Shown: positions 1-63,786 of the stretch, in pieces
How positions within the stretch are numbered: the stretch's first letter is position 1
Layout: each line of letters begins with the position of its first letter
Source: Escherichia phage VerenaGrendelmeier_Bas101
Sequence record: PQ850631.1
Reading direction: 5' to 3' (one strand)
DNA: 64,000 nucleotides
Position numbers and translations under genes: made by a program
The notes under the pieces: generated by a model
What the model saw: only the letters and a program-made list of their open reading frames with translations
The model's database searches: none
Told to the model about the DNA's origin: nothing

Positions 1-1428
1 ATGTACCAGTTGAATCCTGCTTTAAAAGAAGTCTGGAAGACAAAAGCGCGATACAAAGTAATATACGGCGGTCGTGCATCTTCCAAATCGCATGATGCCG
101 CTGGTTTTGCTATTTATTTGGCGGCAAACTTCAAATTAAAATTTCTTTGCGTGCGACAATTCCAGAACAAGATTTCTGAATCTGTATATACTCTATTAAA
201 AGACAAAATAGAGATTTCTGATTTCAAAGATGAGTTCAATTTATTAAAGAACTCTATTGAACATAAAAGAACTAAATCTGAATTTCTATTTTACGGTATC
301 GCACGTAACGTTGATGAAATCAAATCAACGGAAGGTGTTGACGTCCTTTGGTTGGAAGAAGCGCACGCGCTTACTGAAGAACAGTGGGACATTATTGAGC
401 CGACAATCCGTAAAGAAGGGTCCGAAATATGGATCATCTTTAACCCTGATGAAGAGGCTGATTTCGTCTACCAAAACTTTGTTATGCGACCGCCGAAGAA
501 TGCCATTGTTAAAAAGATAAACTGGCAAGACAATCCATTTTTGTCGCAAACAATGCTGGACGTTATTGCAGGCATGTACGAGCGTGACCCGAAAAAGGCA
601 GAGCACGTTTATGGCGGCGTGCCGAAGACTGGCGGCGACAAATCTGTAATCAACCGCGCATTCGTTAAGGCCGCTCTTAATCTCCACAAACACCCTACGC
701 TGGGATGGAGTTTGTCAGGGTCTAACCGTATAGGCTTTGACGTAGCGGACGATGGCGACGACCTTAACGCCACTGCATTCGTCACAGGAAACGTATTGCG
801 CGGCATCAAGACTTGGGAAGGTCTGGAAGATGAATTGTTGAAATCGGCAAGCGGAGTTTGGAAAGATGCGCTTACATTTGGCGCTTCTATAACTTATGAC
901 GCCATCGGTGTCGGCGCTTTTGCTGGTTCAAAATTTGATGAACTAAACGAGTATGCAATACATGAAAATCCATCATTTCCAAGAATCGAATTTAATGCGT
1001 TCAACGCGCAAGGGTCTGTTGATGATCCTGATGACGTTTTTCTTGAGCTACCACACGTTGAAATACTCAATAAAGACCATTTCGCAAACATAAAAGCGCA
1101 AAAGTGGACTGAAATTGCAGAGAGATTCAGAAAGACATACGAATATGCAACTGGGCAAGCCGTATATCCGACTGATGAATTGATTTCAATCGACACCGAT
1201 GGTATACCGGAACTTGGGATTCCAGCTTGGACTACTGAAGAGATTGAGACGTTTCTTTTTGAGATGTCAGCGCCGCGCAAAGATACGTCTGTTCTTGGCA
1301 AGTTCAAAGTTGAATCCAAAAAGGATATGGCAAAGCGTGGAGTCAAATCACCTAACAAAGCGGACGCAGCAATCATGGCATTGATGAAACCAATTGTTGC
1401 AGCATCCGGCTTCTTCTCTAACCTTTAA
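1..1428 (+). CDS. terminase large subunit
   Basis: 475-aa ORF starting at window base 1; N-terminal P-loop-like KVIYGGRASSKSHD; directly upstream of portal-like gene. Confidence 0.7.
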   Translation: MYQLNPALKEVWKTKARYKVIYGGRASSKSHDAAGFAIYLAANFKLKFLCVRQFQNKISESVYTLLKDKIEISDFKDEFNLLKNSIEHKRTKSEFLFYGIARNVDEIKSTEGVDVLWLEEAHALTEEQWDIIEPTIRKEGSEIWIIFNPDEEADFVYQNFVMRPPKNAIVKKINWQDNPFLSQTMLDVIAGMYERDPKKAEHVYGGVPKTGGDKSVINRAFVKAALNLHKHPTLGWSLSGSNRIGFDVADDGDDLNATAFVTGNVLRGIKTWEGLEDELLKSASGVWKDALTFGASITYDAIGVGAFAGSKFDELNEYAIHENPSFPRIEFNAFNAQGSVDDPDDVFLELPHVEILNKDHFANIKAQKWTEIAERFRKTYEYATGQAVYPTDELISIDTDGIPELGIPAWTTEEIETFLFEMSAPRKDTSVLGKFKVESKKDMAKRGVKSPNKADAAIMALMKPIVAASGFFSNL

Positions 1429-2246: not shown

Positions 2247-4622
2247 ATGAAAATTCTTGGCATAAAACTCTGGGAGAAGACGCAACCAGAAGCCGAACCA
2301 GCGGAGATGCCGCCAGGCGACCCATTGGCACCGTTTGAACGCCTGGAAAGGCGCGGCAGCGGCCAACGCTGGGATAAGACCGAAAGCAACCGCCCGACCT
2401 TTAAAACCGTTGATGACTTTCCTTTATATGAGCCTGATATCAACGGGGACGGTGTTGCAATCATTAAAGGTCGCTCAGTAGATTCAGCAACCGTATCCAA
2501 AAAAGTTATGGATAATGCCTTAAAGAACATAAGTTCAGAAGGGCAGGTGAATCCATACACAGTCCCTATTCAGTTGCAAAACTGGTACTTATCGCAATCA
2601 TTTATCGGATATCAAGCTTGCGCCATCATCGCGCAGCACTGGCTAGTGAACAAGGCTTGTTCCATGGTAGGCCGCGATGCGGTCCGTAAAGGCTGGGAAG
2701 TCAAATCCAGCTCTGAGTCGGAATTGTCAGTACAGGCAAGCGAACGCCTAAAGCAAATTGATAAAGAATTTAATATCAAAGAGCACTTAGTTGAAGCCGA
2801 ACGATTCAAGAATATTTTTGGCATCCGCGTCATCATATTTGATGTGCGCAGTGATGACCCAGAATATTATAGCAAACCTTTTAACATCGATGGCGTGACA
2901 AAGGGGTCTTATAAGGGAATCATTCAGGTTGACCCTTATTGGATGATGCCATTCTTGACATCTGAAAACACTGCAGACCCTGCATCACAGCATTTTTATG
3001 ATCCAGAATATTGGGTGATCAGCGGACAACGTTATCACCGCAGCCACCTCATAATCTTGCGCAACGATGAGCCAGCTGATATTCTCAAGCCGACTTATAT
3101 CTATGGCGGCATTCCTTTGACTCAGCAGATTTATGAACGTATCTATGCCGCTGAACGTACCGCTAACGAAGCTCCATTGCTGGCGATGTCTAAGCGTACA
3201 ACCACGCTGCGGACCGACGTTGACAAGGCGATTGCCAATGAGCGGTCGTTTGCCGAACGTTTGATGATGTGGATTAAGTACCGCGACAACTATGCGGTAA
3301 AAGTACTTGGTCAGAAAGAAGAGATGGACCAGTTTGACATCAACTTGTCAGACTTCGACAGCATCATCATGAACCAGTACCAGCTGGTGGCCGCAATCGC
3401 AAAAGTTCCGTCGACAAAACTGTTAGGGACGTCACCTAAAGGCTTTAACGCCACTGGTGAGTTCGAAATGGTCAGCTATCACGAAGAATTGGAGACTTGT
3501 CAGCAGCACGATTTGACGAAGATTCTTGACCGTCACTACAAAATCCTTTTGAAATCTGAAGGTGTTGAAGTCGACGTTAAAGTGGCATGGGAGCCAGTTG
3601 GTTCACTTACTGCTACTCAACTTGCAGAGATTAACGACAAACGAGCGAATACTGGTAAGACTCTCATTGATGCTGGCGTCATCTCCCCTGATGAAGAGCG
3701 CGACCGCATCAAAGACGACAAAAACAGCGGCTACAACCGTTTGCCAGAAGATACAGCAGAAGAAACCCCAGGGATGTCTCCAGAGAATATGGCATTGCTT
3801 GGCAAGTCCGCTGGTGAAGTTCTGCAAGGTAAGGCCGATATTGAACAGGCTAAGGCTGATGTTGTCAAGATGGGCGGCCAGTTCTATAGCGAGACTGGTA
3901 TCATGCCGGAAGGTGCCGCGCGCGGTGAGTTGGCAGAAAACCCTGACAGGGCACCAGTTGAGATTAACATGGATGATACCGATGACGAATCAAGCCATCA
4001 CGTTGATGTTCTAACGCAACTTAAAGAGGGTCTGGAGGGTATTGCTGACTATTACCTTAAAGAAGGTCAGGACGTGGATTTTGACCCTCAAAAAGATGCA
4101 AGGTCGGTGCAACCGTCTACGCTTCCAAGCGTAAAAGGAAATGTCGTAAACTTGCGACACAATGTAGGGAAGATGGATGCCGCATCGCTGCCTAAGATGA
4201 AGTTGCACGGGATGATTCTTGGTATTGAGAATCCTCGCAACAGCATTCGCAGGGGTAACAGTCTTGATGGTGAATGGGCAGTTAAGATGCCGCACCATTA
4301 CGGATTCATCAAAGGAACCAAGGGTGCTGATGGTGATGAAGTCGACTGCTTTGTTGGACCAAATATGAAGTCGCCTAAAGTATTCATCATTAACCAAAAT
4401 GATAATTATTCTGGCGAATTTGATGAACACAAGTGTATGCTTGGATTCGATTCAGCAGAAGAAGCGAAAGAAGCTTATCAGGCATCATTTGGTAACGGTT
4501 GGAATGGATTCGACTCAATCCACGAATTGGATGTAGACTCATTCAAGGAGTGGTTGAAGGGTGATTGCTCTCAAGCATATGGAGCACTCAATAATCCTAC
4601 TAATTCACCGAAGCAAGGTTGA
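2247..4622 (+). CDS. portal-like protein with C-terminal inorganic-pyrophosphatase-like domain
   Basis: large ORF after terminase; start moved to ATG 2247 behind AGGTGG RBS; C-terminal HHYGFIKGT..DGDEVDCFV and AEEAKEAYQASF resemble family I PPase. Confidence 0.55.
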   Translation: MKILGIKLWEKTQPEAEPAEMPPGDPLAPFERLERRGSGQRWDKTESNRPTFKTVDDFPLYEPDINGDGVAIIKGRSVDSATVSKKVMDNALKNISSEGQVNPYTVPIQLQNWYLSQSFIGYQACAIIAQHWLVNKACSMVGRDAVRKGWEVKSSSESELSVQASERLKQIDKEFNIKEHLVEAERFKNIFGIRVIIFDVRSDDPEYYSKPFNIDGVTKGSYKGIIQVDPYWMMPFLTSENTADPASQHFYDPEYWVISGQRYHRSHLIILRNDEPADILKPTYIYGGIPLTQQIYERIYAAERTANEAPLLAMSKRTTTLRTDVDKAIANERSFAERLMMWIKYRDNYAVKVLGQKEEMDQFDINLSDFDSIIMNQYQLVAAIAKVPSTKLLGTSPKGFNATGEFEMVSYHEELETCQQHDLTKILDRHYKILLKSEGVEVDVKVAWEPVGSLTATQLAEINDKRANTGKTLIDAGVISPDEERDRIKDDKNSGYNRLPEDTAEETPGMSPENMALLGKSAGEVLQGKADIEQAKADVVKMGGQFYSETGIMPEGAARGELAENPDRAPVEINMDDTDDESSHHVDVLTQLKEGLEGIADYYLKEGQDVDFDPQKDARSVQPSTLPSVKGNVVNLRHNVGKMDAASLPKMKLHGMILGIENPRNSIRRGNSLDGEWAVKMPHHYGFIKGTKGADGDEVDCFVGPNMKSPKVFIINQNDNYSGEFDEHKCMLGFDSAEEAKEAYQASFGNGWNGFDSIHELDVDSFKEWLKGDCSQAYGALNNPTNSPKQG

Positions 4623-5482: not shown

Positions 5483-6403
5483 ATGACGATACCAATCAAC
5501 ACATTCCCTCTATCTGGACAAACTCCAGTCTTGCCTGCGGTGTATGCTAATGGCTTGGCAATTGTCTCAGAATTCACTTCTGATAAAAACTTGATTGTTC
5601 CACTGAGCCCGCCGCTTGCATCAGGGTATAACTCAGTAGGTCAATTCTTTATGATTGGCAATGATGGCGATTCGACCAGCAAGCCTAACCTGACATTGTC
5701 TGTGCCTAAGATGAACATCACAGACGTTCAAACTGGCTTGACTGCATCAACAATCACCATTGCTTTTGGTGAAGCAGTGATCATAGGTATGGAGTCTGGA
5801 GGGTCGAAAAACGCTGTCGCAGTCAAAGTTGTGAAAACCAGCGGCAACCAATACACGTTACCAGCGGCAACAGCTTCCGTTCTTGGTGGCGTCAAAATAG
5901 GCACCGGAATAAGCGTAGCAGGTGATGGTACAATCAGCGTCACCCAATACTCATTGCCGATTGCCTCAGCATCTACTTTAGGCGGCGTAAAGGTCGGTAC
6001 AACTCTATCAATTGATGGGTCTGGTGTGCTTAATGCAGCAGCAAGTACCGTCCAGAATGCCACTAATAGCGTCAGCAATCCTCCAACAACTTTGGTCAAT
6101 CTGGCAACCTTAAACCTTCCTGCAGGGAAATGGCTTGTAACAGCAAGTCAGTTGACTGTCGCGACAGCAGGCGTTCAAGCGAATACCGGAATTACAGTCA
6201 AATTGTCAACAAGCAATTCAGATATTACGGATGATGCATTTGCCATGTCAGCTGGAATTCGGGCTGCAGGTCGCTTCGGCGGCAACATCCCAACAAAAGT
6301 AATTACTCTTGCCGCGCCTGGTAATGTGTATTTAAACTATCAGTGCACCGACGCGTTGACATCTACCGTTTACGGACAGATCACCGCAATTAAGCTGAAC
6401 TAA
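5483..6403 (+). CDS. structural protein with internal tandem repeats
   Basis: start moved to ATG 5483 behind GAGG; two about 30-aa repeats containing LGGVK(I/V)GT. Confidence 0.45.
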   Translation: MTIPINTFPLSGQTPVLPAVYANGLAIVSEFTSDKNLIVPLSPPLASGYNSVGQFFMIGNDGDSTSKPNLTLSVPKMNITDVQTGLTASTITIAFGEAVIIGMESGGSKNAVAVKVVKTSGNQYTLPAATASVLGGVKIGTGISVAGDGTISVTQYSLPIASASTLGGVKVGTTLSIDGSGVLNAAASTVQNATNSVSNPPTTLVNLATLNLPAGKWLVTASQLTVATAGVQANTGITVKLSTSNSDITDDAFAMSAGIRAAGRFGGNIPTKVITLAAPGNVYLNYQCTDALTSTVYGQITAIKLN

Positions 6404-6413
6404 AGAGGAAGTT

Positions 6414-6551
6414 ATGCAAAAGATTATTCAGTCACGTTATGTTAAAGTGCGAAATATTAATTGCAACTCTTTGCTTTCTTGGAAATGGGCTGTTTATGAC
6501 TCGATGTTGATTGGCGTTTTAGTGGCAGGAGTGCTATTTAATATTCACTGA
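6414..6551 (+). CDS. small putative membrane peptide (45 aa)
   Basis: AGAGGAAG RBS then ATG 6414; hydrophobic stretch MLIGVLVAGVLF; not in ORF track (under 60 aa). Confidence 0.3.
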   Translation: MQKIIQSRYVKVRNINCNSLLSWKWAVYDSMLIGVLVAGVLFNIH

Positions 6552-6584
6552 ATTCATCGGCAAAGGATTGCCGCGAGTTTTATA

Positions 6585-6850
6585 CGTATAATGACGTATC
6601 ATCCGTATCAAGTAAGTTGTTGTTTTCAAAAGAATCTTACGGATGATACGCGTTGCCGCCGTACCATATAGGAATTCAAATAAATTAATTTAAAATTATA
6701 TATCTAATTTAATTTTATTTTTTTATAAACTCTTATATATGAAAAGTATCCGTATCATCCGTATCATCCGTAGCACACCAGTGATAGCGCGACTTATACA
6801 CCGATACGGATAAAAATACGCCTCATTTTATCCGTATCATCCGTATCACA
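6585..6850. repeat. control region A: conserved 14-mer CGTATAATGACGTA, 9-bp ATCCGTATC iterons and AT-rich tract
   Basis: 14-mer at 6585-6598; iterons at 6597-6610, 6637-6666 (inverted), 6748-6773 (three tandem units), 6803-6812, 6828-6848; AT-rich 6670-6745. Confidence 0.6.
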
Positions 6851-6905
6851 CTAATAAAGGCGCGGCTATATCGGTTGTTATACATATTCAAACCATAATT
6901 ATTGT

Positions 6906-6934
6906 TTGCCTAAGTTTTTTTCATTAGATATAAT
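6906..6934 (+). promoter_or_regulatory. sigma70-like promoter (TTGCCT-17-TATAAT) for head/tail operon
   Basis: -35 TTGCCT 6906-6911, -10 TATAAT 6929-6934, 24 nt upstream of the start of 6958..8379. Confidence 0.5.
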
Positions 6935-6957
6935 ACACAATACTTATTTGAGGGTGG

Positions 6958-8379
6958 ATGCGAATGCAAACGGCACGCGAAATTGACAAAAATGGATTCT
7001 TGACGATTATGGGTTGTCCAATTTCGTCATTTGGCATTTTTGATTATTCTGCTGGTCAAGTTGGTCTTGATGGTGATCCGAATCGCATCGTAAAAGTCTA
7101 TCGCCCTGAGTCAGCGGTGAAAGACCCCGAAGCGATAGATTCATTCAAAAATATCCCTTTCATCGACAATCACGAAATGCTTTCTGGATTTGAAGGTGAT
7201 GAGGATAACACGGCACCCGAAGAGTATGGTGTCGATGGCGTTCTAACTGGCAATGTTTATTATGACAAGCCATGGATGCGCGGCGACCTTAAAGTGTTCA
7301 GCCGTCGTCTTAAGAAGGCCATTGATTCTGGAAAGGTTGACTTGTCTTTGGGCTATGACTGTGAATTCATCATACAGTCTGGAGAGTTTGACGGGCAGCC
7401 GTATGAAGTGGTGCAGACAACTCTTCGCGGCAACCACATTGCTCTCGTGGACGTTGGTCGAGTACCAGGTGCACGGGTGCTGGATGGTCGTTGCTTTGAC
7501 CATCTTTGTTTGACGACTGTAACACCATCCAACGAGGATTTAGACATGCCAAAACCGTTAAAAGGTAAAGCGCGTGATAATGCTGTTGAACAGCTGAAAT
7601 CACTGATCCCTGCGCTCGAACAATTTCTGAATGAAGAGAGTGCTGAAGCTGCTCATCAGGACGAAGTTGAAGTGAAAGCAGAAGAGAAGGACTCAACCGA
7701 AAATCGTGAAGAAGTAATGGTTGATCCAGAAGTCAAGGCAGAAGCAGAAGAAACCCCAGAAGGTGAAGAGAAGTTTGAAGTTGAAACTGAATCTCACGCT
7801 GACGGCGAACTTCCGCAATTGATCAGCCAAATCGAAGCACTTATTGCAAAACTGAAAGGTGGCGCGGTAGGTGATGAAGAAGAAGTTGAAGCCGAAGTCA
7901 AAGACGAAGAAGAAGTTGAAGTCAAGGCTGAAGATGTATCACCTTGCGACAAAGCTGAAGATGTGGTTAGCGGCCTGCAAAACAGCAACGTAAAGGGGGC
8001 TTCGGTCGAAAAAGATGACAAACCGACAAAAGCGGCGAAAGCGTCGCCAGGTCCAGCAAAAGGGGAACACTCAATGGCATCTGATTCAGCAGTTGCTGCT
8101 TTCTACGCTGATTCTGCTCGTAAGAATAGCCTCTACCAGCGCCTGTCTAAAGTTGTTGGTGCCTTTGATCATGCAACTATGGACTCCAAGTCCGTAGCGA
8201 AATATGGCGCTAAAAAGTTAGGCTTGAAGTGCGTTGATGGTGCTGAGTTTGACGTGGTGGATAATTATCTGCGCGGCGTTGAGCACGGTCAAAAACAGCG
8301 TGTAGTCGCAAAACAAAAGGCCGCTGCGGATTCTGCAGCAACTGACGAAGCATTTGAAGCTTGGTTGAAAGGGGAATAA
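6958..8379 (+). CDS. putative scaffolding / prohead core protein
   Basis: 473 aa; globular N-terminal half, then highly acidic E/V/K-rich repeats (EEVEAEVKDEEEVEVKAED); lies between head-morphogenesis and capsid genes. Confidence 0.45.
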   Translation: MRMQTAREIDKNGFLTIMGCPISSFGIFDYSAGQVGLDGDPNRIVKVYRPESAVKDPEAIDSFKNIPFIDNHEMLSGFEGDEDNTAPEEYGVDGVLTGNVYYDKPWMRGDLKVFSRRLKKAIDSGKVDLSLGYDCEFIIQSGEFDGQPYEVVQTTLRGNHIALVDVGRVPGARVLDGRCFDHLCLTTVTPSNEDLDMPKPLKGKARDNAVEQLKSLIPALEQFLNEESAEAAHQDEVEVKAEEKDSTENREEVMVDPEVKAEAEETPEGEEKFEVETESHADGELPQLISQIEALIAKLKGGAVGDEEEVEAEVKDEEEVEVKAEDVSPCDKAEDVVSGLQNSNVKGASVEKDDKPTKAAKASPGPAKGEHSMASDSAVAAFYADSARKNSLYQRLSKVVGAFDHATMDSKSVAKYGAKKLGLKCVDGAEFDVVDNYLRGVEHGQKQRVVAKQKAAADSAATDEAFEAWLKGE

Positions 8380-9013: not shown

Positions 9014-10153
9014 ATGACTCGCATTAGCCAAACACACTCTCGCCTCCCAGCGAGCAAGGTGCGCCCTTTTGATATGCAATCCGTTACTGACGCGGCTGTT
9101 TCCCAGCTTGCTCGTATCGGTATTGTGTTTGATTCCGCGATTGTGCGTGATCAGATTGAGCACTTAAACCGTGCAGGCGCTTTCCGCGTAGGTGACGCCG
9201 CGTTTACTGCGCCGCAGACTACTCCGTCAATCCCGACCCCGTTGCAATTCCTGCAGCAGTGGCTGCCTGGCTTCGTCAAAATCATGACCGCTGCTCGTAA
9301 AATCGACGAGCTGGTTGGTATTGATACCGTTGGTCAGTGGGAAGATGCAGAAATCGTTCAGGGCATCGTTGAACCAGCTGGCACCGCAGTTGAATATGGT
9401 GATTTCACATCTATTCCTCTGGCAAGCTGGAACGTAAACTTTGAACGTCGTTCTATCGTTCGTGGCGAAATGGGCATGGCAGTTGGTATGCTGGAAGAAG
9501 GCCGCGCATCCGCTATGCGTCTGAACTCCGCAGAAACCAAGCGCCAGCAGGCTGCTGTATCTCTGGAAATCATGCGTAACGCAATCGGCTTCTATGGTTG
9601 GTACAACGGGAACAACCGCACATTCGGCTTCCTGAATGATCCAAACCTGCCAGCAGCGATGACTTCCAACACCACTTCCGGCTGGGCTACTGCGACTTTC
9701 CAACAGGTAACTGCAGACATCCGTTTGATGGTTCGTCAAATTCGTGTGAACTCTCAGGACCAGATTGATCCAGAGAAAGTTGACATGACTCTGGCGCTGC
9801 CGACTAACTCTATCGATTGGCTGTCCAACACCACTGACTTCGGTATTTCTGTACGTGACTGGATCACCCAGACTTATCCGAAGATGAAGATCAAATCTGC
9901 ACCGGAACTCAACGGCGCACTTGGCAGTGACCCGACTTTCTTGAACGTGGCATACCTGTACGCCGATCACATCGATTCCTCAATCGATGGTTCAAGCGAT
10001 GATGGTTCCGTATTCAGTCAGCTGGTTCAAACCAAGTTCATGACTCTGGGCGTTGAAAAGCGTGCTAAGAGCTACGTTGAAGACTACGCAAACGCAACAG
10101 CAGGCGTTCTGCTCAAGCGTCCGTTCGCAGTCGTCCGTATGACTGGTATTTAA
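9014..10153 (+). CDS. putative major capsid protein
   Basis: 379-aa ORF after scaffold-like gene, AGGTG RBS, followed by a strong hairpin; assignment by position and size. Confidence 0.5.
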
Positions 10154-10178
10154 TTGCTGTGATTACACAGTAAAACAC

Positions 10179-10208
10179 ATGGGGCGTGGTCGAAAGGCTT
10201 CGCCCCAT
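10179..10208 (+). terminator. stem-loop after capsid gene (no clear U-tract)
   Basis: ATGGGGCG / CGCCCCAT 8-bp stem with 14-nt loop, 26 nt after the capsid stop. Confidence 0.3.
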
Positions 10209-10268
10209 ATCAATAGACCTCAAGGGCTGTAGGGGCTTATCTGAGGCTTATATAAATAGGACTACAAA

Positions 10269-10733
10269 ATGTCAAAATACATCGTTTCAACTATGTCTAT
10301 GTCAGTTAACTACACTTTCTATACGGAAGTGAAAGAAAACCCGAATGCAAAAGCTGGTTCAGGCGCTCTTCCAAATATTCGCAAACAGATTCTAATCAAG
10401 GGCGGCGCTGGTCTTACTTCAGCAACTTCCGGCTTTGGTGAAATGGCAAAAGGCGCTGACGGTGCACCTTTGTGGACTCCTGAAGGAATCGTCACCGTTG
10501 TAAGCGATGCAGATTTTGAGCATCTGAAAGATCATCACGTGTTTAAGCAGCATCTTGAAAAAGGTTTGGTGAAAGTCGTAAATCACGACATTGTTGGCAA
10601 CCACAAAGCCGTCGCTAAAGAAGTTCGCAGCATGTCAGACGACCCGTTTGCGCCTATGACGCGCGAAACTGCTGACAAGCGCATCAAGGTAAAATTGAGC
10701 GGCGACCAAGAAGATGATTTGTTCCGCGTTTAA
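10269..10733 (+). CDS. hypothetical virion protein
   Basis: 154-aa ORF in late operon. Confidence 0.45.
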   Translation: MSKYIVSTMSMSVNYTFYTEVKENPNAKAGSGALPNIRKQILIKGGAGLTSATSGFGEMAKGADGAPLWTPEGIVTVVSDADFEHLKDHHVFKQHLEKGLVKVVNHDIVGNHKAVAKEVRSMSDDPFAPMTRETADKRIKVKLSGDQEDDLFRV

Positions 10734-10738
10734 ATAAG

Positions 10739-11203
10739 GTGAATGCCATGTCATTAGATTACGAAAAGTTCAGAATTAAATTTCCACAGTTTGCTGATCA
10801 GGTTAAATTCCCTGACACAACACTTCAAGTATTCTATGACATGGCATGTGAATTTATTGAATCACAAGACAGTCCTTGTCGTGTTTTAAATGGCAGTAAA
10901 TTGGAGCTGGCATTGGAATATATGACGGCTCATCTTTTATGCATAGCCGCAGACCAACAAGTGTCTGTGTCTTCTGGTGACGGAGTTGAACAAGGCGGCT
11001 TCGTGACTGGCGCAACAATTGGTGACATCACAGTGAACAAAGTCGCGCCGCCTGCGAGTGATGGCTGGGAATACTGGCTATCAAGCACTCCATATGGCAT
11101 GGCGCTGTGGGCGCTTCTTCAAGCACTGGCCGTTGGCGGCTTGTCATTCGGCGGTCTTCCAGAGCGTGAAGGATTCCGTAAAATTGGTGGGGTATTCTGG
11201 TGA
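10739..11203 (+). CDS. hypothetical head-tail joining region protein
   Basis: 154-aa ORF, tightly packed. Confidence 0.45.
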   Translation: MNAMSLDYEKFRIKFPQFADQVKFPDTTLQVFYDMACEFIESQDSPCRVLNGSKLELALEYMTAHLLCIAADQQVSVSSGDGVEQGGFVTGATIGDITVNKVAPPASDGWEYWLSSTPYGMALWALLQALAVGGLSFGGLPEREGFRKIGGVFW

Positions 11204-43590: not shown

Positions 43591-44430
43591 TTATTCCGCT
43601 TGATCACCGTCTTCAGCATCGTCGTTGGATTCAACATCGACAAACTCGATGTGGCCCATCTCTTCCAGCTTGCTCAGGTAGGAGCGAACGGAAGCGCCAA
43701 ACAGTTGATCTTTAACTTTCTCGCCCAGCTCATCGATAGACTGTGCCACGCCAACTTCGCCTTCTTTGATCGCAGCCAGAACGCGTCCACGGGTGGAATG
43801 CTCTTGCGGCTGGCTCAGGCCATTACCAGTGTAGATGAAGTGAGTAGCTTTTGCACGACGCTGACCGTTTGCCTTTTTAGCAGCCTTACGTTCTGCGATG
43901 GCTTTGCGACGTTCTTCAGCTTCTTTCTTACGCTGTTCTTTCTGCTGTTCTGCAGCTTCTTTCGCCGCAATCTTAGCAGCTTCACGCTCTGCCTTGCGTT
44001 TCGCTTTAGCTTCTTCTTTGGCCTTCTCTTTTTCGGCCTTCGCTGCAGCACGGGCTTGATCACGCTCTGCTTTCTTAGCAGCAGCTTGTTCAGCTTTCAG
44101 GCGCTTGGCTTCTTCTTTAGCCTTTGCCTTTTCGATTTCTTTCGCTGCTTTAGCGGCTTCACGCTCTGCTTTCTTAGCAGCGGCCTTTTCTGCACGCTCT
44201 TTAGCTTTCTTGGCTGCTTCTTCAGCACGCTTCTGAGCCTTCTCATCAGCAGCCTGCTTGCGTTTCAGCGCAGCTTCTTCACGCTTGGCTTGTTTTTCCT
44301 GCTCACGCTTCTGGCGTTTTTCTTCGGCTTCTTTCTTTTTAGCCAGGCGTTTTTCTTCAGCCACGCGACGACGTTCTGCTGCAGCTGCTTGTTTTTCTTC
44401 TTTAGATAATACTTTGATTGCTTCGGCCAT
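43591..44430 (-). CDS. Lys/Ala/Glu-rich low-complexity protein with globular C-terminal domain
   Basis: about 200 aa of KAEE/AKKA-type charged repeats, then non-repetitive acidic C-terminus; ATG 44430 behind AAGGA. Confidence 0.5.
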   Translation of the reverse strand: MAEAIKVLSKEEKQAAAAERRRVAEEKRLAKKKEAEEKRQKREQEKQAKREEAALKRKQAADEKAQKRAEEAAKKAKERAEKAAAKKAEREAAKAAKEIEKAKAKEEAKRLKAEQAAAKKAERDQARAAAKAEKEKAKEEAKAKRKAEREAAKIAAKEAAEQQKEQRKKEAEERRKAIAERKAAKKANGQRRAKATHFIYTGNGLSQPQEHSTRGRVLAAIKEGEVGVAQSIDELGEKVKDQLFGASVRSYLSKLEEMGHIEFVDVESNDDAEDGDQAE

Positions 44431-44589
44431 GTTCACAGTCCTTAAATAAATTAGTTTATTTTATATTCCCCGTTTGGGATAACTTAATTATGCCTTCAGT
44501 CGCCGCCAGTAGCAACTAAAAACTATGGCGGCGATGCCACTTTAATTAAACTGATTTTCAGTTTTATTTTTCGTAAATTTACGTCAACA

Positions 44590-57829: not shown

Positions 57830-58245
57830 TACAGCGTTACGATGTTGATTATTGCACGCAGCACGCTTGCACTTGTGAAGTTGTAAAGGATGATGAAGGC
57901 GGCTATGTTGAATATGAGGACTATGAATCACTACTCAAGCTTAATGAGTCGCTAACAAAAGAGATTGAGCAATACCGCGAGCGCATCAAAGTCGCTGAAG
58001 ATATTATCAAGCTTTTTAGCGAGGCTGTTGAGAAATACAAGGAGCGCAACGTACCGATTAAGGAGGAAGCGTGGACCGTGTGGCGTGGTGGCGATAATCC
58101 GGTGCCTGGTGAGATTGTTGAATACAAGCTGCGCAATGGAGGTGATAAAGTTCTGTCGAGACTTTCTGATCATCTTCACTGGGGTCATATAGGCGCGTTA
58201 AAGGGCAGCGACATCATTGCTTATCGGGTCGTTAAGGAGGGGTGA
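57826..58245 (+). CDS. early protein with shared C-terminal NPVPG...DIIAYRVV domain
   Basis: start at ATG 57826 overlapping upstream stop; CxxC-like N-terminus CTQHACTC. Confidence 0.45.
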   Translation: MIQRYDVDYCTQHACTCEVVKDDEGGYVEYEDYESLLKLNESLTKEIEQYRERIKVAEDIIKLFSEAVEKYKERNVPIKEEAWTVWRGGDNPVPGEIVEYKLRNGGDKVLSRLSDHLHWGHIGALKGSDIIAYRVVKEG

Positions 58246-58694
58246 TGGGCAAACGGCTTATCGCCGCTGGTTGGGCCATACCGAAGTGGGGCCATCGTGC
58301 GCATTACTTTGACGAAGGAGAAGGGCAAAGCCTTTGTGGTCGCGCAACATATTTCGGTGATGAGCGCGTCAGCGGCGATTATATCGATTCGCTTTTAGGT
58401 AAAGGTGATTGCAAGAAGTGCCAAAATATATTAAGAGATATTCTTACGCAAAAAGGATTGCTTGAGCTTGATGAATCGGAAGAAGTAATTGATCTTAAGC
58501 TGGAAGCCAATCACCTTATTAATATGTTCAAGAATTATTACTTAACTAATATGCGCTCAAAGATGCGTAAGGAAGTAATAGAAGAGGTACTCACTTACAA
58601 TCCTTTAAGGATGAATAAAACTAAATTGAAGAAGTTTAATATAATGATAAGGAAGGAATTTAAAAGGCTTGGAGTGAAGAATTTTATATTTTAA
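58242..58694 (+). CDS. hypothetical early protein with Cys cluster
   Basis: 150 aa; CGRATYFGD...CKKCQ; last gene before terminator. Confidence 0.4.
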   Translation: MMGKRLIAAGWAIPKWGHRAHYFDEGEGQSLCGRATYFGDERVSGDYIDSLLGKGDCKKCQNILRDILTQKGLLELDESEEVIDLKLEANHLINMFKNYYLTNMRSKMRKEVIEEVLTYNPLRMNKTKLKKFNIMIRKEFKRLGVKNFIF

Positions 58695-58710
58695 TAGTGA
58701 TTAATGTTAA

Positions 58711-58736
58711 GAGGGCCGATTGGCCCTTTTTGTTTG
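58711..58736 (+). terminator. rho-independent terminator ending early operon
   Basis: GGGCC / GGCCC stem, 4-nt loop, then 9-nt T-run. Confidence 0.65.
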
Positions 58737-58744
58737 CCTGTGGT

Positions 58745-58980
58745 ATGTGAGGATTTATTATCGGATAAAGCGATTGATTTGTGCAAATCTATTAGAGGGT
58801 CATGGGTAGTGAGGATTGTGACGTGAATTTTGTGTCTTGAATATGTGTGCGAATCTGGAAGATTATTGTACTGTGGTGCTGTGGGATTGTAGAGGGAATC
58901 ACTAGGAATTGGAGCGTGTACCGTGGTGTGTGGTCCTGTAGGCTGCGCCGTCTATGGGATTGTCGCTTGAAATTAAAAAG
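58745..58980. repeat. G+T-rich non-coding stretch with GGATTGT repeats
   Basis: plus strand has very few C; GAGGATTGTG at about 58811, GGGATTGTAG at about 58883, GGGATTGTCG at about 58966, plus degenerate copies. Confidence 0.5.
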
Positions 58981-59021
58981 GAGATATAGTTAGCTGGCTA
59001 ACCTTACGCATAGAATTTAAG

Positions 59022-59310
59022 CGTATAATGACGTAAGATTTGGACCTATCCGTAGTTCACTCCACACACTTCTATGGTGCGCCGCGACTGGGTTCAGTGG
59101 TACATCTTACGGATGATACGGATGATACGCGTCGCCGCTATACTTTATACAACTTTGAAAAAAACAATTAACTCCATTTTGAATTAATTTAAATTAATTT
59201 TTTTCTACATCCTCATACTTATACTAAACTTATATTTATACGTATTATCCGTAAGATATAAGTAAAAACAAAGACTTGCGGCAATACGGATGATACGTCA
59301 CGATACGCTT
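59022..59310. repeat. control region B: same 14-mer CGTATAATGACGTA, iterons and AT-rich tract as region A
   Basis: 14-mer 59022-59035; CTTACGGATGATACGGATGATACGCGTCGCCGCTA 59107-59140 matches 6637-6666; iteron copies at 59046-59055, 59243-59257, 59282-59307; AT-rich 59145-59240. Confidence 0.6.
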
Positions 59311-59472
59311 CAACCAGCCAGCAGCGGCTAAGTCATTGATTTGCATAACAAGCGACGAAAGGGATGGATTTCTTTTATACGTATCAAACAGTACACCACG
59401 CACCACGGTCCGTTATCCATCCAGCACTATGATTTGTGTACGTTTATAGCCATAATGAACATCAATCTGCAC

Positions 59473-59501
59473 TTGAATATAATGTCCATCCATTGTATAA
59501 T
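59473..59501 (+). promoter_or_regulatory. sigma70-like promoter (TTGAAT-17-TATAAT)
   Basis: -35 59473-59478, -10 59496-59501 with TG immediately upstream. Confidence 0.4.
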
Positions 59502-59521
59502 TCACACTATTAATTTGCACT

Positions 59522-60010
59522 ATGGGATTTTGCACTATGAGTCAAGATTATGTAGCGATGCCTGAAGACTTTGAAGACCCGCGATTCGCAGAGCACAATC
59601 AGGCTTTATTCGATGAGTTCATTGACCTTGTTATTCAGGGCCATGACATGCGCGCAGCTTTTGCACTAGTATTTGGAATGGAAGTTGCAACGGATAACTA
59701 CACTGGCCAGCGAATCCTTTGCACGCAACGCAATCCATACTACAAGATGCGCTTCAAAAAGCGTATGGAAGAGATGCCACTCAAGGATTTGTGGAGCGTA
59801 AAAGGTGCAATTCACAATTTGGTCAAGCTTGTGCGTGATCCAGAAGTCGCGGCGTCAGCCAAGCTTAATGCTATTCGTGAACTGAATATCATCTATGGCA
59901 TCACGATGATTGATGAAAACGGCAATAGTAAAATGGGCCGTTCTATGGACGATTTCTACAAGGATTTTGGAGAGGCGGCCAAAGAAGGCGAGCAATTCTC
60001 CCGCCACTAG
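59522..60010 (+). CDS. hypothetical protein
   Basis: 162-aa ORF; start region overlaps two TTTGCACTAT copies; start codon uncertain (59522 or 59537). Confidence 0.4.
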   Translation: MGFCTMSQDYVAMPEDFEDPRFAEHNQALFDEFIDLVIQGHDMRAAFALVFGMEVATDNYTGQRILCTQRNPYYKMRFKKRMEEMPLKDLWSVKGAIHNLVKLVRDPEVAASAKLNAIRELNIIYGITMIDENGNSKMGRSMDDFYKDFGEAAKEGEQFSRH

Positions 60011-60029
60011 CCAATTTGCACTATAAAAC

Positions 60030-60063
60030 GGCCCTAGAACACATTGTCTCCACTTCTAGGGCC
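60030..60063 (+). terminator. hairpin after 59522..60010 (weak U-tract)
   Basis: GGCCCTAGAA / TTCTAGGGCC 10-bp stem with 14-nt loop. Confidence 0.35.
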
Positions 60064-60124
60064 ATCGGTAATACGACGGGGAAGGTTGCAACCGTAAACG
60101 CGTTAGAAAGTGTATTATTATAAG

Positions 60125-60388
60125 TCATCTTTTAGTCACCTTACGTAACAATTTACGACCTTCAACCGTCCAATCGAACGACTCCACCAGCAGATTCGCA
60201 CTATAACCTAAGATGATGCGCCCTTTCTCGTTATCGACCCGCCAACAAGTCTCGAATAGCATTCGATTTGCACTATTAACTATCGCCGCAACGCGCGTTG
60301 GGTAAACGCAATTTGCACTATGGTCGTAAAGGGATAAGGTGCGACCACTTCCGATGGACAATGTAGCGATGAGAATAAGCGTATTCAT
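60125..60388 (-). CDS. hypothetical small protein
   Basis: 87-aa ORF; three in-frame TTTGCACTAT copies translate as SAN tripeptides; weak support. Confidence 0.3.
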   Translation of the reverse strand: MNTLILIATLSIGSGRTLSLYDHSANCVYPTRVAAIVNSANRMLFETCWRVDNEKGRIILGYSANLLVESFDWTVEGRKLLRKVTKR

Positions 60389-60438
60389 AAGCCACCAATT
60401 TGCACTATGAAAAGCGACCCCGAAGGGCCGCCATTCGA

Positions 60439-61065
60439 TTAGATAATCTGGAATGTGTAGGACTTGTTGCCGAACTCAAAGTTCAAGCGTCCAGCTTCTT
60501 TAAGCTTCATGCGGAAGCGAATGTGCTTACTATCCGGTAAGCCCAGCGCGGCGAACGCCACGCGGACCGATTTGAACTCGCCTACACCCTCGACCATAAC
60601 GCCGTTACGCGTGAGACGCTTTTGCGCCACTTCCTTGTTATCCCAACTTTTTGCAATACCTTCGCTATTCGAACGGCGATGGGAAGGAGTTCCATTTTGC
60701 ACTACGCAATTTGCACTATCGTTTAGGCCGCTTTTAACGAAGGCTTCATACTCTTCGTCGGTCATCGCGTCGAGTTCTTCCTGGGTCGGCTCGGCCTTTT
60801 TAACGACCGCACGCGCCTTATGCGTTTTTACATCGCTGGACACTTCCTCGCGCGGCTTCGCGTCGGGAATGGGCGATTCGTTGGACGGCTCATCGAGCGC
60901 GTTTAAGGACTCGATTAACGCGATTACGCGAGTCTCGGCGGTACGGCGGTCCGCAAATTTCTTAATCGGCTTCGAACCGGAATTTGCATTATAAAATGCA
61001 ACGAGGTCGGCGGTCTTAGTTGCGATAACGTCGCCGCTAGTCGAGAAACGATTTAAGCTAACCAT
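60439..61065 (-). CDS. hypothetical protein
   Basis: 208 aa; conserved initiation region ATAGGAGTTCATT-ATG. Confidence 0.45.
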   Translation of the reverse strand: MVSLNRFSTSGDVIATKTADLVAFYNANSGSKPIKKFADRRTAETRVIALIESLNALDEPSNESPIPDAKPREEVSSDVKTHKARAVVKKAEPTQEELDAMTDEEYEAFVKSGLNDSANCVVQNGTPSHRRSNSEGIAKSWDNKEVAQKRLTRNGVMVEGVGEFKSVRVAFAALGLPDSKHIRFRMKLKEAGRLNFEFGNKSYTFQII

Positions 61066-61145
61066 AATGAACTCCTATTTGTTAGGGCGCTAGGCGCGAA
61101 AGAATTTTATTAAAGCGCCGCGCGCGACGCTCTAAAAATCCTCTC

Positions 61146-61460
61146 TTACTCTTCGTCGTCTTCGATTAATTCGAGGGCGAAGGCGTAAGCTTTGCTATCG
61201 TAATTAACTAAAACGGCGAGTTCGAACTCGTTAATAAACGCCGTTTTACCGCATAAATTTAATTCCGCATCGACTTCGAAGAATCCGTTTTCGTCGCGCT
61301 CTAAGCGAGAAGCAGCGAGTTGCTCGATTACCGTCGCGTCGTTAATTTCTTCGCCTAAGCGAACGCCGGAGAATTTCGCGAGAATTTCGCCGTAAGTAAG
61401 CGTAACGCCCTGGACTTCGGCGGTTGCGTTTTCGAGGGTAAAGCGGGTAACGATAGCCAT
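61146..61460 (-). CDS. small acidic protein
   Basis: 104 aa ending LIEDDEE; conserved initiation region CTAGGAGTTTATT-ATG. Confidence 0.45.
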   Translation of the reverse strand: MAIVTRFTLENATAEVQGVTLTYGEILAKFSGVRLGEEINDATVIEQLAASRLERDENGFFEVDAELNLCGKTAFINEFELAVLVNYDSKAYAFALELIEDDEE

Positions 61461-61600
61461 AATAAACTCCTAGTTGGGAGAGGCGTTAACGACCTATTCG
61501 TTAACTCATCCCGTCCCGATATGAGTACATTATAATATAGTGTAGAAAAAAGTAAAGCACTTTTTCGATAAAAATGCGATAAATTATTTTATCTTTTTTC

Positions 61601-61628
61601 TTTACTTCTTCGTACACTCGCGTATACT
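61601..61628 (+). promoter_or_regulatory. sigma70-like promoter (TTTACT-16-TATACT)
   Basis: within direct repeat CTTTACTTCTTCGTACACT also found at 62003. Confidence 0.45.
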
Positions 61629-61684
61629 TGTTTATATCGAGACGGGCGATGGCCCTTCCTTCTACTAGCATCGGGAGTTTTATT

Positions 61685-61987
61685 ATGACCACTTTAATCT
61701 CTTCTATCCTTACTTACGACGAAGACCGTTTAACCGTTCGCTCTCTTATCGCCGCCGTTAACGCGGAACTAGAATCCACCATTATTAAGGTCCGCGCGGT
61801 CGCTTTCGTCGGCCTTTCCTTCGACGATATTAAGTACGCCGAACGTAGCGCCATCCGCTTCGCGAAGACCGACGACGAAGCCGTTACCCTTATCGAGACG
61901 GTTACGCCGCGCGGCGAAGCGTTAATTATCGTCGAGTATATCGACGTAGAAGGCGATAAGGCTTATAAATATTTTATTGCAGAATAA
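61685..61987 (+). CDS. small acidic protein
   Basis: start at ATG 61685 behind GGGAGTTTTATT; 100 aa. Confidence 0.45.
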   Translation: MTTLISSILTYDEDRLTVRSLIAAVNAELESTIIKVRAVAFVGLSFDDIKYAERSAIRFAKTDDEAVTLIETVTPRGEALIIVEYIDVEGDKAYKYFIAE

Positions 61988-61998
61988 CGAAAAAGTGC

Positions 61999-62027
61999 TT
62001 TACTTCTTCGTACACTAAGACTATAAT
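61999..62027 (+). promoter_or_regulatory. sigma70-like promoter (TTTACT-17-TATAAT)
   Basis: -35 61999-62004, -10 62022-62027; paralogous to promoter at 61601. Confidence 0.5.
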
Positions 62028-62094
62028 GTTTTATATCGAGAGGGGATGAGGTAGCGAATAGGTCGCTACCCGCCCGACCAACTAGGAGATTATT

Positions 62095-62385
62095 ATGATT
62101 ACTTTAGCCGCTATCCGTTCCGCTCGCGTCGAGACTTCCGAAAACTCTAACGTATTTGGCGAAACCTTAGAGAGCGTTTATCTCTCTAACGTAGACGCAA
62201 CTATCGAACCTATTTATGAGCCGATCAACTTCCTCGACCTTTACAAGTATCGCGACGAGGACATCGTATCATCCCGCGTAACGATTAACGGCTTCGTCTA
62301 TACGATTACCGAAATCGGCGGCGAATATCTCGCTGTACCGCAACTCGGCGGCGAAGTAACTTATTTTAAAATTGTCTCCTTATAA
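62095..62385 (+). CDS. small acidic protein
   Basis: 96 aa; conserved initiation region CTAGGAGATTATT-ATG; 5' UTR hairpin GGTAGCG / CGCTACC 62050-62070. Confidence 0.45.
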   Translation: MITLAAIRSARVETSENSNVFGETLESVYLSNVDATIEPIYEPINFLDLYKYRDEDIVSSRVTINGFVYTITEIGGEYLAVPQLGGEVTYFKIVSL

Positions 62386-62404
62386 TATCCTTCCGTTACT
62401 AATA

Positions 62405-62430
62405 GGCCGCGCTTAGTCGCGGCTTTTCTT
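62405..62430 (+). terminator. rho-independent terminator
   Basis: GCCGCG / CGCGGC stem, 6-nt loop, then TTTTCTT. Confidence 0.55.
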
Positions 62431-62549
62431 CGTCCCTATCTCGATGCGCTTCTCCGCGAAAACTCCTTTATCCTTCCCTTCGTCGTCGCATAATCTTCGT
62501 CGAGATGCGCCTTAGTTCGCATAACAGGTATTACGTTAAATGGAGAACA

Positions 62550-63012
62550 TCGCGTAAGTCCTTGTTTTATATAGACACCTATATCGGACCGTTAGGGCGG
62601 GTCGCGTAAGTCGTTGTTTTATAAAGGCGCAAAACTTTCCCTTCGTTCCGAACTAAAACGAGGAATATGCCGACCCTTCGCCCGAAAATAGTACGCATGC
62701 GAAATCACATGCATCTCGAATAATCCCCACCGATATTATCCTACACGCAATCATTCGCTTTCGAATCATTATGCTTCATATTATTATGCGTCGAATCATT
62801 CGCTTTCGAATTGTAACGCTGGAAACTGTAACGGCGATTGATTATTGCGTTCGTGTGGTTTTTAGGGCATGGGTCTTTTGGTGCGTTTTGGTGCTTGATG
62901 GAATTTGCGGTACACTAATCAAAATACGACACATTTGGTCCACTAACTTTTCAAAGAAAAAGTCCTAGACAGTACCGTACTATTTTGTACCCACAGGAAT
63001 TTGCAGTACACT
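62550..63012. repeat. non-coding region with three families of direct repeats
   Basis: TCGCGTAAGTCnTTGTTTTATA at 62550 and 62602; AATCATTCGCTTTCGAAT at 62749 and 62794; GGAATTTGCrGTACACT at 62900 and 62996. Confidence 0.55.
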
Positions 63013-63082
63013 CCTGCGCGGCAGGCAAAATAAAGGGCCGCCCTAAGCGACCCACGATTCATGGTTAAATCAGCAACACCCA

Positions 63083-63463
63083 CTATTCACTCTTATGGGC
63101 ATCACCAAATCCATCAGCAATCTGGCTGATCAACGACTCAATGGACACAGTTTTACCAATTGATCGAGCGGTTATGGCGAGCATATTATCAATCAAACCA
63201 CGATTGGCTTCACATGTTCCAGGCTTTAATTCATCTTTAGGACCACCAAAAAGCTGGTCGCGCAGACTTTCAAGAGAACGCTCAATATTTTCCAACTTCT
63301 CTTCTAAATCGGATTGGCGACGTAAAACCCACGTCAAGTCACGGTTGCCAACTTCCAATCCATCAGAATAGCAAGGTGGAGCGTCAATTTTGATGCTGGA
63401 ACCAAAAGCAGTGCCGCTGCCTTTAGTATAAGTATGGCTCATAGAATCATTTTTATTTGACAT
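63083..63463 (-). CDS. hypothetical protein with coiled-coil-like segment
   Basis: start moved to internal ATG (plus 63461-63463) behind AAGG. Confidence 0.35.
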   Translation of the reverse strand: MSNKNDSMSHTYTKGSGTAFGSSIKIDAPPCYSDGLEVGNRDLTWVLRRQSDLEEKLENIERSLESLRDQLFGGPKDELKPGTCEANRGLIDNMLAITARSIGKTVSIESLISQIADGFGDAHKSE

Positions 63464-63525
63464 ATCATTACCTTTAATATTTGGGTGATTAACAATAACT
63501 ATAATAAAGCCGCATAGCGCGGCAT

Positions 63526-63786
63526 TCAAATCGATTTATTAATTGTGACGATTGGATTCATCAATCGATACCAATTGCGCAGGGTCGCCGGATACCGTTG
63601 AGCCGATGATACCCATCTGAGAGAAAATTCTGAATAAACTTCTTTCCAGTACTTGCGCGCAGCTTTCTGGGCTTGCCCTTTGCGCTTATAACTTTTGCCT
63701 TGAAAGATGAAGCGGTCTTTTGGAGCGTAATACTCCACCACACCTTCCAGCCATTGTAAGAATGCTACTGATTCATTTTGATTCAT
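63526..63786 (-). CDS. hypothetical small basic protein
   Basis: 86-aa ORF; GAGG RBS. Confidence 0.4.
   Translation of the reverse strand: MNQNESVAFLQWLEGVVEYYAPKDRFIFQGKSYKRKGQAQKAARKYWKEVYSEFSLRWVSSAQRYPATLRNWYRLMNPIVTINKSI

Follow-up and report, generated by a model that had tools for sequence, protein, structure and literature searches.

The 64,000-nucleotide stretch of Escherichia phage VerenaGrendelmeier_Bas101 analysed here (record PQ850631.1; the whole stretch is called the window below) belongs to Wifcevirus, a group of E. coli myophages for which 28 matching GenBank records were found at 92-97% identity. Near its right end lies a non-coding gap of 697 bp (62386-63082), flanked by genes at 62095-62385 (+) and 63083-63529 (-) and closed at both sides by convergent intrinsic terminators. 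A preliminary description of this gap had pointed to its density of repeats, among them three pairs of direct repeats, and to its lack of a convincing open reading frame (ORF). Records of related phages place the right boundary of the direct terminal repeat (DTR) of the virion DNA inside this same gap, and this is the context that explains the region, beyond the view of the preliminary description. The features around the boundary are the following.

59176-62878, no strand: DTR, 3703 bp in window coordinates, with boundaries from the records of four relatives
62404-62432, + strand: left intrinsic terminator at the end of the rightward early genes (8-bp stem with 6 GC pairs, then a T-run)
62812-62878, + strand: last 67 nt of the DTR, ending at the virion right terminus, G+T-rich on the + strand and nearly invariant
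62879-62925, + strand: conserved junction block adjoining the DTR end, TGGTGCGTTTT ... AATTTGCG GTACACTAATCAAAAT, which includes copy 1 of repeat pair 3 (62900-62916)
62996-63012, + strand: copy 2 of repeat pair 3, a second, partly diverged junction-block copy at +128 from the DTR end, with weak partial profile matches
63035-63060, - strand: right intrinsic terminator at the end of the leftward genes (8-bp stem with 6 GC pairs, then TTTATTTT)

The boundaries are fixed by records from different laboratories. Three of them carry the DTR at both record ends, the two copies being free of mismatches (WFH, 3701 bp; SP13, 3899 bp; Ro157lw, 3533 bp), and for a fourth phage, Mansfield, a DTR of 3673 bp was predicted by PhageTerm. 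In all four the right boundary reads ...gggcatgggtcttt/TGGTGCG (gggtcttt/TGGTGCG, with the slash marking the end), which places the right end of the virion DNA at window 62878/62879, and the left boundary reads aattaactcc/ATTTT, corresponding to window 59175/59176. A repeat of about 3.7 kb appears in published Wifcevirus work (PMC6563267), as does the use of PhageTerm for DTR ends (PMC6753283).

The base composition of the DNA also changes at the right end. A CpG-rich domain (60100-62878) has an observed/expected CpG ratio of about 1.9-2.2, versus about 1.1 in the rest of the genome, and within it TCG/CGA, TTCG/CGAA and TCGA are enriched 2.6- to 3.7-fold. This domain spans genes on both strands as well as the non-coding tail of the DTR, and counts of CG per 100 nt run 10, 10, 11, 9, 9 up to the DTR right end and 4, 5, 3, 3 beyond it. 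The domain ends at the DTR end also in Pantoea phage Kyle (1500-3603) and in Serratia phage MyoSmar (1-2060, which becomes the right ~2 kb of the DTR once the record is reverse-complemented). That the domain stops in a step at this very position in three genera indicates that the end is a real structural limit. The CpG-rich domain could be a target for modification, be coated by protein or act as a leader during entry.

Kyle (Kylevirus) and MyoSmar (Myosmarvirus) allow the junction itself to be compared between genera. The Kyle DTR measures 3603 bp, with both copies in the record, 0 mismatches between them and the same gene order inside the repeat as in the window; the MyoSmar DTR, from PhageTerm, measures 3559 bp, and its record is in the opposite orientation. 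Brought into the same orientation, the right ends read:

Window: ...gggtcttt/TGGTGCGTTTTGGTGCTTGATGGAATTTGCG GTACACTAATCAAAAT
Kyle: ...gtgccctt/GACCGCGATTTAGTACCTGGTCCAATTTCACA GTACACTAATCAGAAT
MyoSmar: ...caagggc/TGGTGCGATTTCACACAAAATGGATTGGCAC GTACACTAAATTCG

A junction block of about 47 nt starts at the DTR end and consists of TGGTGCGwTTT, some 20 nt, and then GTACACTAA. The motif GCGwTTT occupies +5 to +11 from the DTR end in all three phages, and GTACACT, contained in GTACACTAA, starts at +32 in the window, +33 in Kyle and +32 in MyoSmar. This register with the end is kept across Wifcevirus, Kylevirus and Myosmarvirus although the small terminase, TerS, is only 43% (Kyle) or 36% (MyoSmar) identical. 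A second direct copy follows downstream in each genus, at +128 in the window, +64 in MyoSmar and +372 in Kyle (the whole ~36-nt block being repeated). The start of the block, TGGTGCGTTTT, is overlapped by a tandem repeat missed in the preliminary description, TTTTGGTGCG in 1.9 copies at 62876-62894. On the other side of the end, the last 67 nt of the DTR have a nucleotide diversity (pi) of 0.015, with 4 of 67 columns variable in the within-genus alignment of 23 genomes (the window and 22 relatives) that underlies all such figures below; the corresponding tract is G+T-rich in Kyle and MyoSmar, and GGGCAwGGG is common to the window and MyoSmar.

When the whole non-coding regions were compared by unbiased local alignment, the single best similarity was centred on the DNA end. 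Window positions -116 to +54 aligned with Kyle -96 to +56 at a score of 24.5, against a shuffle maximum of 19 (0 of 200 shuffles reached it), and the alignment of -33 to +40 with MyoSmar -29 to +40 was reached by 4 of 200 shuffles. An nhmmer profile of the block gave E = 1e-10 to 1e-14 in the loci of Wifcevirus, Kylevirus and Myosmarvirus only, its best value in 20 other, more distant terS-anchored loci, Pbunavirus included, being E = 0.87. The composite block pattern had 5 matches where 0.26 were expected, and neither profile nor pattern matched the junction block in Pbunavirus loci. According to published reports, Pbunaviruses package by the headful mechanism and have circularly permuted genomes (PMC10913387, PMC12345254). 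Two apparent extensions of the comparison were rejected: a clean DTR in Pbunavirus PS44, whose record merely has an odd 573-bp terminal duplication, and the exact 16-mer GTACACTAATCARAAT in IMG/VR, whose 26 matched stretches, Wifcevirus and Kyle contigs apart, were unrelated chance matches.

We consider the odds slightly in favour of the gap being the right-hand DTR junction, where a long-DTR phage has its cis-acting signals for terminus formation and packaging, a reading drawn from the sequence comparisons above. Replicated concatemers would be cut at this junction and the repeat duplicated, producing the right end of the virion DNA. The outside block would be the recognition or positioning element for the end-making nuclease, which might be the terminase (TerL guided by a decamer of the DTR-encoded TerS) or a dedicated nickase, and which would cut ~32 bp upstream of GTACACT. 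As the block is external to the repeat and so present once per genome unit, a cut would be possible only at a true repeat-to-unique junction. Copy 2 of pair 3 may act as a cooperative or back-up site, and pair 1, together with the palindrome and AATCATT array of pair 2, may provide genus-level accessory binding sites on the packaged DNA end, by analogy with the small-terminase binding repeats beside the cut site in other phages.

A gene for one part of such machinery lies within the repeat:

59537-60010, + strand: terS (small terminase), 157 aa, inside the DTR, from a profile of 4 homologues

The terS profile matches PDB 7UXE, 'Small terminase' of phage E217, at E = 1.8e-79; the protein belongs to PHROG 4783, and TerS homologues occur in 358 phage records. 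TerS is a candidate reader of the putative junction signals. The large-terminase gene, terL, occupies window 1-1416, and its product is 64% identical to TerL of Pbunavirus PS44; terL and terS are far apart on the map, as in E217 (PMC9611059).

The GTACACT motif can also be read as an operator. A regulator recognising it, and perhaps ATTCG-N4-CGAAT, would shut off early promoters and bind the gap as well, where the nearness of the DTR end would be a coincidence. Each of the three strong early sigma-70 promoters of the DTR does have [GC]TACACT in its spacer, at 61539 (-), 61612 (+) and 62010 (+), in the arrangement CTTTACTTCTTC-GTACACTAA-GAC-TATAAT; each unit of pair 2 is a weak minus-strand sigma-70 match (9/12), and six relatives have an extra 69-aa ORF, a 'transcriptional regulator', just upstream of the gap. 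A fixed register of +32/+33 with the DNA end in three genera would not be expected of an operator, however, convergent terminators close the gap, and no gene lies downstream of any site. A search of the gap for consensus -35/-10 promoters with a downstream gene returned only the two 9/12 minus-strand matches, both in pair 2. Other copies of GTACACT in Kyle and MyoSmar are at chance level (4 versus 2.1 expected), with no obvious promoter association, and the repeats are kept with or without the 69-aa ORF, which itself lacks family support. We therefore regard an operator function as unlikely. The ORF comes with a 227-bp insertion after window 62374 in Wifceviruses SP13, Ro157lw, ECML-117, FEC19, Eco4M-7 and F13, directly upstream of the gap; it is called a 'transcriptional regulator' in some records and gave no match in Pfam, NCBIfam or PDB.

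The repeats of the gap can now be placed relative to the end:

62500-62522 and 62697-62719, no strand: 23-nt inverted repeat bracketing pair 1, 78% complementary
62550-62574 and 62602-62626, + strand: repeat pair 1, TCGCGTAAGTCsTTGTTTTATAwAG, 25 nt, 92% identical, spacing 52
62749-62766 and 62794-62811, + strand: repeat pair 2, exact 18-mer AATCATTCGCTTTCGAAT within the region 62733-62820, spacing 45; 43 nt at 74% when extended
62900-62916 and 62996-63012, + strand: repeat pair 3, GGAATTTGCrGTACACT, 17 nt, 94% identical, spacing 96

All three pairs are present as the preliminary description gave them, with pair 1 extending to 25 nt. Relative to the DTR end, pairs 1 and 2 occupy -329 to -68, inside the repeat and so within 330 bp of the virion right end (pair 1 itself at -329 to -253), and pair 3 lies outside the repeat, at +22 to +134. 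The density of repeats is also well above expectation: when exact direct-repeat runs are counted that are 10 nt or longer and lie within 150 bp, the gap has 4 where 0.12 were expected. None of 1000 first-order Markov simulations came to this number, and among 181 tiles of equal size in the window only 5 did. No further copy of the units of pairs 1-3 was found in the 64-kb window at up to 4 substitutions. A possible third copy of pair 1 at 59324 was dismissed, being just 68% identical (p ~0.07, an estimate), as was a likeness of pair 1 to the start region of the early promoters (TGTTTTATAT), where 12/13 matches are, by our estimate, within chance for the amount of sequence. Two other tiles, at ~6300-7000 and ~43750-44450, are repeat-dense too, and the second, with 10 runs counted in the same way, has the window maximum; they are probably the other repeat-dense regions of the preliminary description.

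The conservation of these elements in relatives is uneven. Pair-1 units have a pi of 0.019 and keep their 52-bp spacing in 22 of 23 genomes, and copy 2 of pair 3 carries one extra A in all 22 relatives, which makes the spacing 97 in most genomes. Tandem Repeats Finder resolves pair 2 into an array of about 4 tandem units with a period of 15 bp (62749-62811), and its outer units contain the palindrome ATTCG-CTTT-CGAAT and a core, AATCATT. The second pair-2 unit aligns with Kyle, where a double change preserves the symmetry (ATTCG-N4-CGAAT in the window, ATTAG-N4-CTAAT in Kyle). AATSATT heptamers are clustered at -129 to -84 in the window and at -139 to -18 in Kyle, with 0.24 expected in each. 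The region is non-coding, repeat-dense and strongly constrained, and protein-binding sites are therefore a reasonable reading of it.

The preliminary description had gone further and proposed dimeric DNA-binding proteins, on the grounds that the paired sites are spaced at multiples of the helical turn. The palindromic pair-2 unit and its symmetric double change in Kyle do fit a dimeric binder, but the phasing argument is weak: the spacing of pair 1 (52 bp, ~5.0 turns) agrees with it, that of pair 2 (45 bp, 4.3 turns) does not, and for pair 3 it fails, as the distance is 96-97 bp in the window genus, 32 bp in MyoSmar and 339 bp in Kyle. The link drawn there between pair 3 and the TTTGCACTAT family through AATTTGC is likewise weak and holds only within Wifcevirus: in Kyle, which has the same TTTGCACTA family, the sequence of the junction block is AATTTCAC.

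Direct repeats of 15-25 bp in a conserved, non-coding, transcription-free stretch, one of them (pair 2) a 4-unit array, also recall an iteron-type replication origin, in which an initiator would bind the repeats near an unwinding element. Each long repeat is present in two copies only, whereas at least 3 regularly spaced iterons would be looked for, and the copy number of the array varies, with the exact duplication in 9 of 23 genomes. An AT-rich tract is lacking as well, the maximum AT content over 40 nt being 72.5% in the gap and 87.5% at the left boundary. Searches of the gap for DnaA, IHF, Fis, CRP and GATC sites found none above expectation, the neighbouring genes have no initiator signature, and the conservation across genera has the DNA end as its centre rather than the arrays. 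An origin of this type is, in our view, most improbable.

Across the 23 genomes the gap has a pi of 0.045, compared with 0.16-0.20 at third codon positions of the flanking genes, so that it is conserved about 4-fold above the synonymous sites of its neighbours. The left terminator is invariant (pi 0) and is annotated as a terminator in the WFC, WFH and Mansfield records; the right one, at 63035-63060, is annotated as such in WFC and WFH. The gap might also harbour a non-coding RNA with a defined structure, or a gene for a small peptide. Folding of the + strand of 62490-62730 gives z = -4.07, with 0 of 200 shuffles as good, and ORFs of 31-69 aa are annotated here in some records. The other three strand/segment folds were not significant, however; covariation measures equalled those of shuffles, and the closing helix is broken in most relatives, the inverted repeat at 62500-62719 being well paired only in this isolate, with mispaired arms in most others. 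There is no upstream + strand promoter, a terminator stands just before the segment, and a search against Rfam found no family in the gap, the sole match being irrelevant (E = 0.81) and outside it. Every small ORF in the gap is broken in at least 1 and up to 14 of the 23 genomes, none being intact in all, and the ORFs annotated here by several records are therefore probably not genes. An RNA or peptide product of the gap thus seems to us scarcely credible.

The position of the gap at the inner end of a long terminal repeat brings to mind phage T5, which has a non-coding repeat region of 1662 bp (9194-10856) across the end of its terminal repeat of 10,139 bp; the stop signal for injection lies in this region, which is better conserved than many ORFs of the repeat (bioRxiv 10.1101/866236). 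By this comparison, the tract in the gap would control DNA entry, holding injection back until early proteins have been produced, or would serve to protect or circularise the DNA end as it enters. Besides the matching anatomy (in both phages a long terminal repeat that carries genes has a non-coding, repeat-dense tract at its inner end), the DTR carries strong sigma-70 promoters and small early-type genes, and the special CpG-rich domain stops at the boundary. The region differs from T5 'Repeat Region 3' in size, however (0.7 kb versus 1.7 kb), and T5-like regions carry 8 DnaA boxes (TTWTNCACA), whereas the gap has 0 exact and 0 at one mismatch, and none occurs in 58600-63100. The DTR proteins other than TerS gave no match in Pfam, NCBIfam, annotated PHROGs or PDB, and no T5 pre-early protein could be recognised among them. 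The late-function gene terS sits in the DTR, and two-step injection is documented for T5 and BF23 only. Finally, the +32 register, for which T5 has no reported counterpart in fixed register with its end, indicates cutting rather than pausing. These points leave a T5-type function distinctly unlikely.

The junction reading is thus supported because the end lies in a transcription-free zone, the block keeps its register with the end, the region is constrained, terS is inside the DTR, and the alternatives lack support. Several observations weigh against it. The DTR ends rest on read-start statistics or on record structure, and the WFC record (MK373777, position 3784) ends the repeat 81 nt further right, at 62959/62960, between the copies of pair 3; either the assembly followed another convention or the phage truly has an alternative end. 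By alignment, the left and right DTR boundaries have no significant similarity, and a single recognition element therefore cannot account for both cuts. Since GTACACT is also found in the spacers of the three early sigma-70 promoters, it fits a transcription-regulator site equally well. The presence or absence of the block follows packaging mode in few lineages, and this is confounded by phylogeny. As to the reader of the signals, E217 TerS showed no appreciable DNA binding in vitro (PMC9611059), which counts against a simple model in which TerS reads the repeats. Roles of pairs 1 and 2 in end formation can be suggested only weakly, because pair 1 has no counterpart detected in Kyle or MyoSmar, and pair 2, the least conserved of the repeats (exactly duplicated in 9 of 23 Wifceviruses), is variable and partly deletable: phage Bas100 is without 45 bp of the array, that is, three 15-bp units.

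In a bolder version of the junction reading, which we hold to be conceivable though rather doubtful, the block, the embedded repeats and the 2.8-kb CpG/TCGA-rich domain would jointly make up a system, so far undescribed, that processes the ends of long terminal repeats. In such a system the element ~32 bp outside the repeat would direct a site-specific nick, defining the virion end and priming duplication of the repeat, and the CpG-rich domain would be a specialised cis-acting tract, for instance a first-entering, protein-coated or modified leader.

Among known packaging systems, one that is close in outline is the T7/T3 concatemer junction. From the work of Dunn and Studier in 1983 and the packaging work of Fujisawa and Hinkle, its terminal repeat is reportedly flanked by short repeat arrays and by pac/cleavage sites. 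As here, the ends are fixed and carry a direct terminal repeat, short direct-repeat arrays lie beside the repeat, and promoter-like sequence is found near the ends. Cis signals at the repeat/unique junctions direct site-specific concatemer cuts and repeat duplication there, as they may also do here. The T7/T3 repeat is 160-230 bp long, whereas the present one measures 3.7 kb and has genes within it, terS among them. The two systems show no similarity in sequence, the phage studied here is a myovirus with headful-packaging relatives, its conserved block is found ~32 bp beyond the repeat, and no promoter for a phage RNA polymerase is involved. In lambda-type cos, the cut site is flanked by small-terminase binding repeats on the packaged side and by a termination element on the other. 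The gap has a similar tripartite layout, with candidate sites (pairs 1 and 2) on the packaged side, a precise cut, and the conserved junction block beyond. Unlike lambda, with its 12-nt cohesive ends, the ends here are 3.7-kb direct repeats, with no IHF consensus and no sequence similarity, and TerS is of the E217 decamer type, unlike lambda Nu1. In Twort-like staphylococcal myophages, as Lobocka and colleagues are said to have described in 2012, short conserved sequences bracket a repeat of ~8 kb, the same motif standing as an inverted pair at both boundaries. Those phages, myoviruses like the present one, thus also have a long, gene-carrying terminal repeat whose boundaries are marked by short conserved elements; they differ in that the left and right boundaries here have no significant similarity apart from the heptamer TGGTGCG.

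That heptamer, with which the right outside sequence starts, also occurs ~100 nt outside the left boundary. It is part of a 22-mer there, TCTATGGTGCGCCGCGACTGGG (window 59071-59092), which is identical at 22/22 positions in MyoSmar 3634-3655 (- strand), with an alignment score of 22 against a shuffle maximum of 19, despite a TerS identity of ~36% and hypervariable surroundings. MyoSmar has a second, inverted copy inside its DTR (3349-3370). The sequence outside the left boundary (58100-59100) is hypervariable among Wifceviruses, with a pi of 0.3-0.4 versus 0.02-0.09 inside the DTR, and 58001-59000 is strongly G+T-rich on the + strand, with a GC skew of +0.34.

Further sequence families are found within the DTR. 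Three copies of one early promoter module, composed of CTTTACTTCTTC-GTACACT-..-TATAAT and a conserved leader, lie at 61529-61556 (-), 61600-61646 (+) and 61998-62045 (+), and two of the leaders (61458-61522 and 62033-62097) form a 65-nt inverted repeat at 82%. Two strong promoters precede terS (59456-59501); together with the three modules they make the DTR the main sigma-70 promoter cluster of this genome end. The TTTGCACTA(T) family has 11-13 copies in window 59514-60992, all on the + strand whatever the gene orientation, which cluster from terS to ~1.8 kb into the DTR and are essentially absent elsewhere in the 64 kb. Ten copies of the 9-mer TTTGCACTA, again all on the + strand, occupy the same place in the Kyle DTR (579-1475), and MyoSmar was found to be without the family. 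The family is a candidate for a polar element acting in cis, such as an array recognised by the small terminase. The reverse complement of Chi, CCACCAGC, is correctly oriented for RecBCD entering at the left end. The window DTR has 4 such sites (59311, 59318, 60004 and 60184), a mild excess near the left end, with some directly before TTTGCACTAT copies, and Kyle has about 10 (at most 1 mismatch), all on the + strand, at 255-1972 in the left half of its DTR.

The terminal repeat of these phages is itself published; the boundary anatomy and the junction block are not described in the literature that we searched. We know of no phage, be it T5, SPO1, the Twort-like phages or those studied here, in which the mechanism that makes kilobase-long terminal repeats has been worked out, nor of any cis signal defined for such repeats. 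To our knowledge, the junction block would be the first sequence-defined candidate terminus signal for a kilobase-long terminal repeat. At the level of annotation, the small gap ORFs of several records can be corrected as probably not genes. The exact structure of the ends is needed for rebooting and engineering the genomes of fixed-end phages; Wifceviruses grow on engineered E. coli K-12 (BASEL collection), and their Pbunavirus relatives are used in therapy. The block also offers a precise, mutable target, as displacing GTACACTAA should shift the end if the model is true. If the bolder possibility of a dedicated end-processing system were correct, these phages would provide a defined sequence with which to study how kilobase-long terminal repeats arise.

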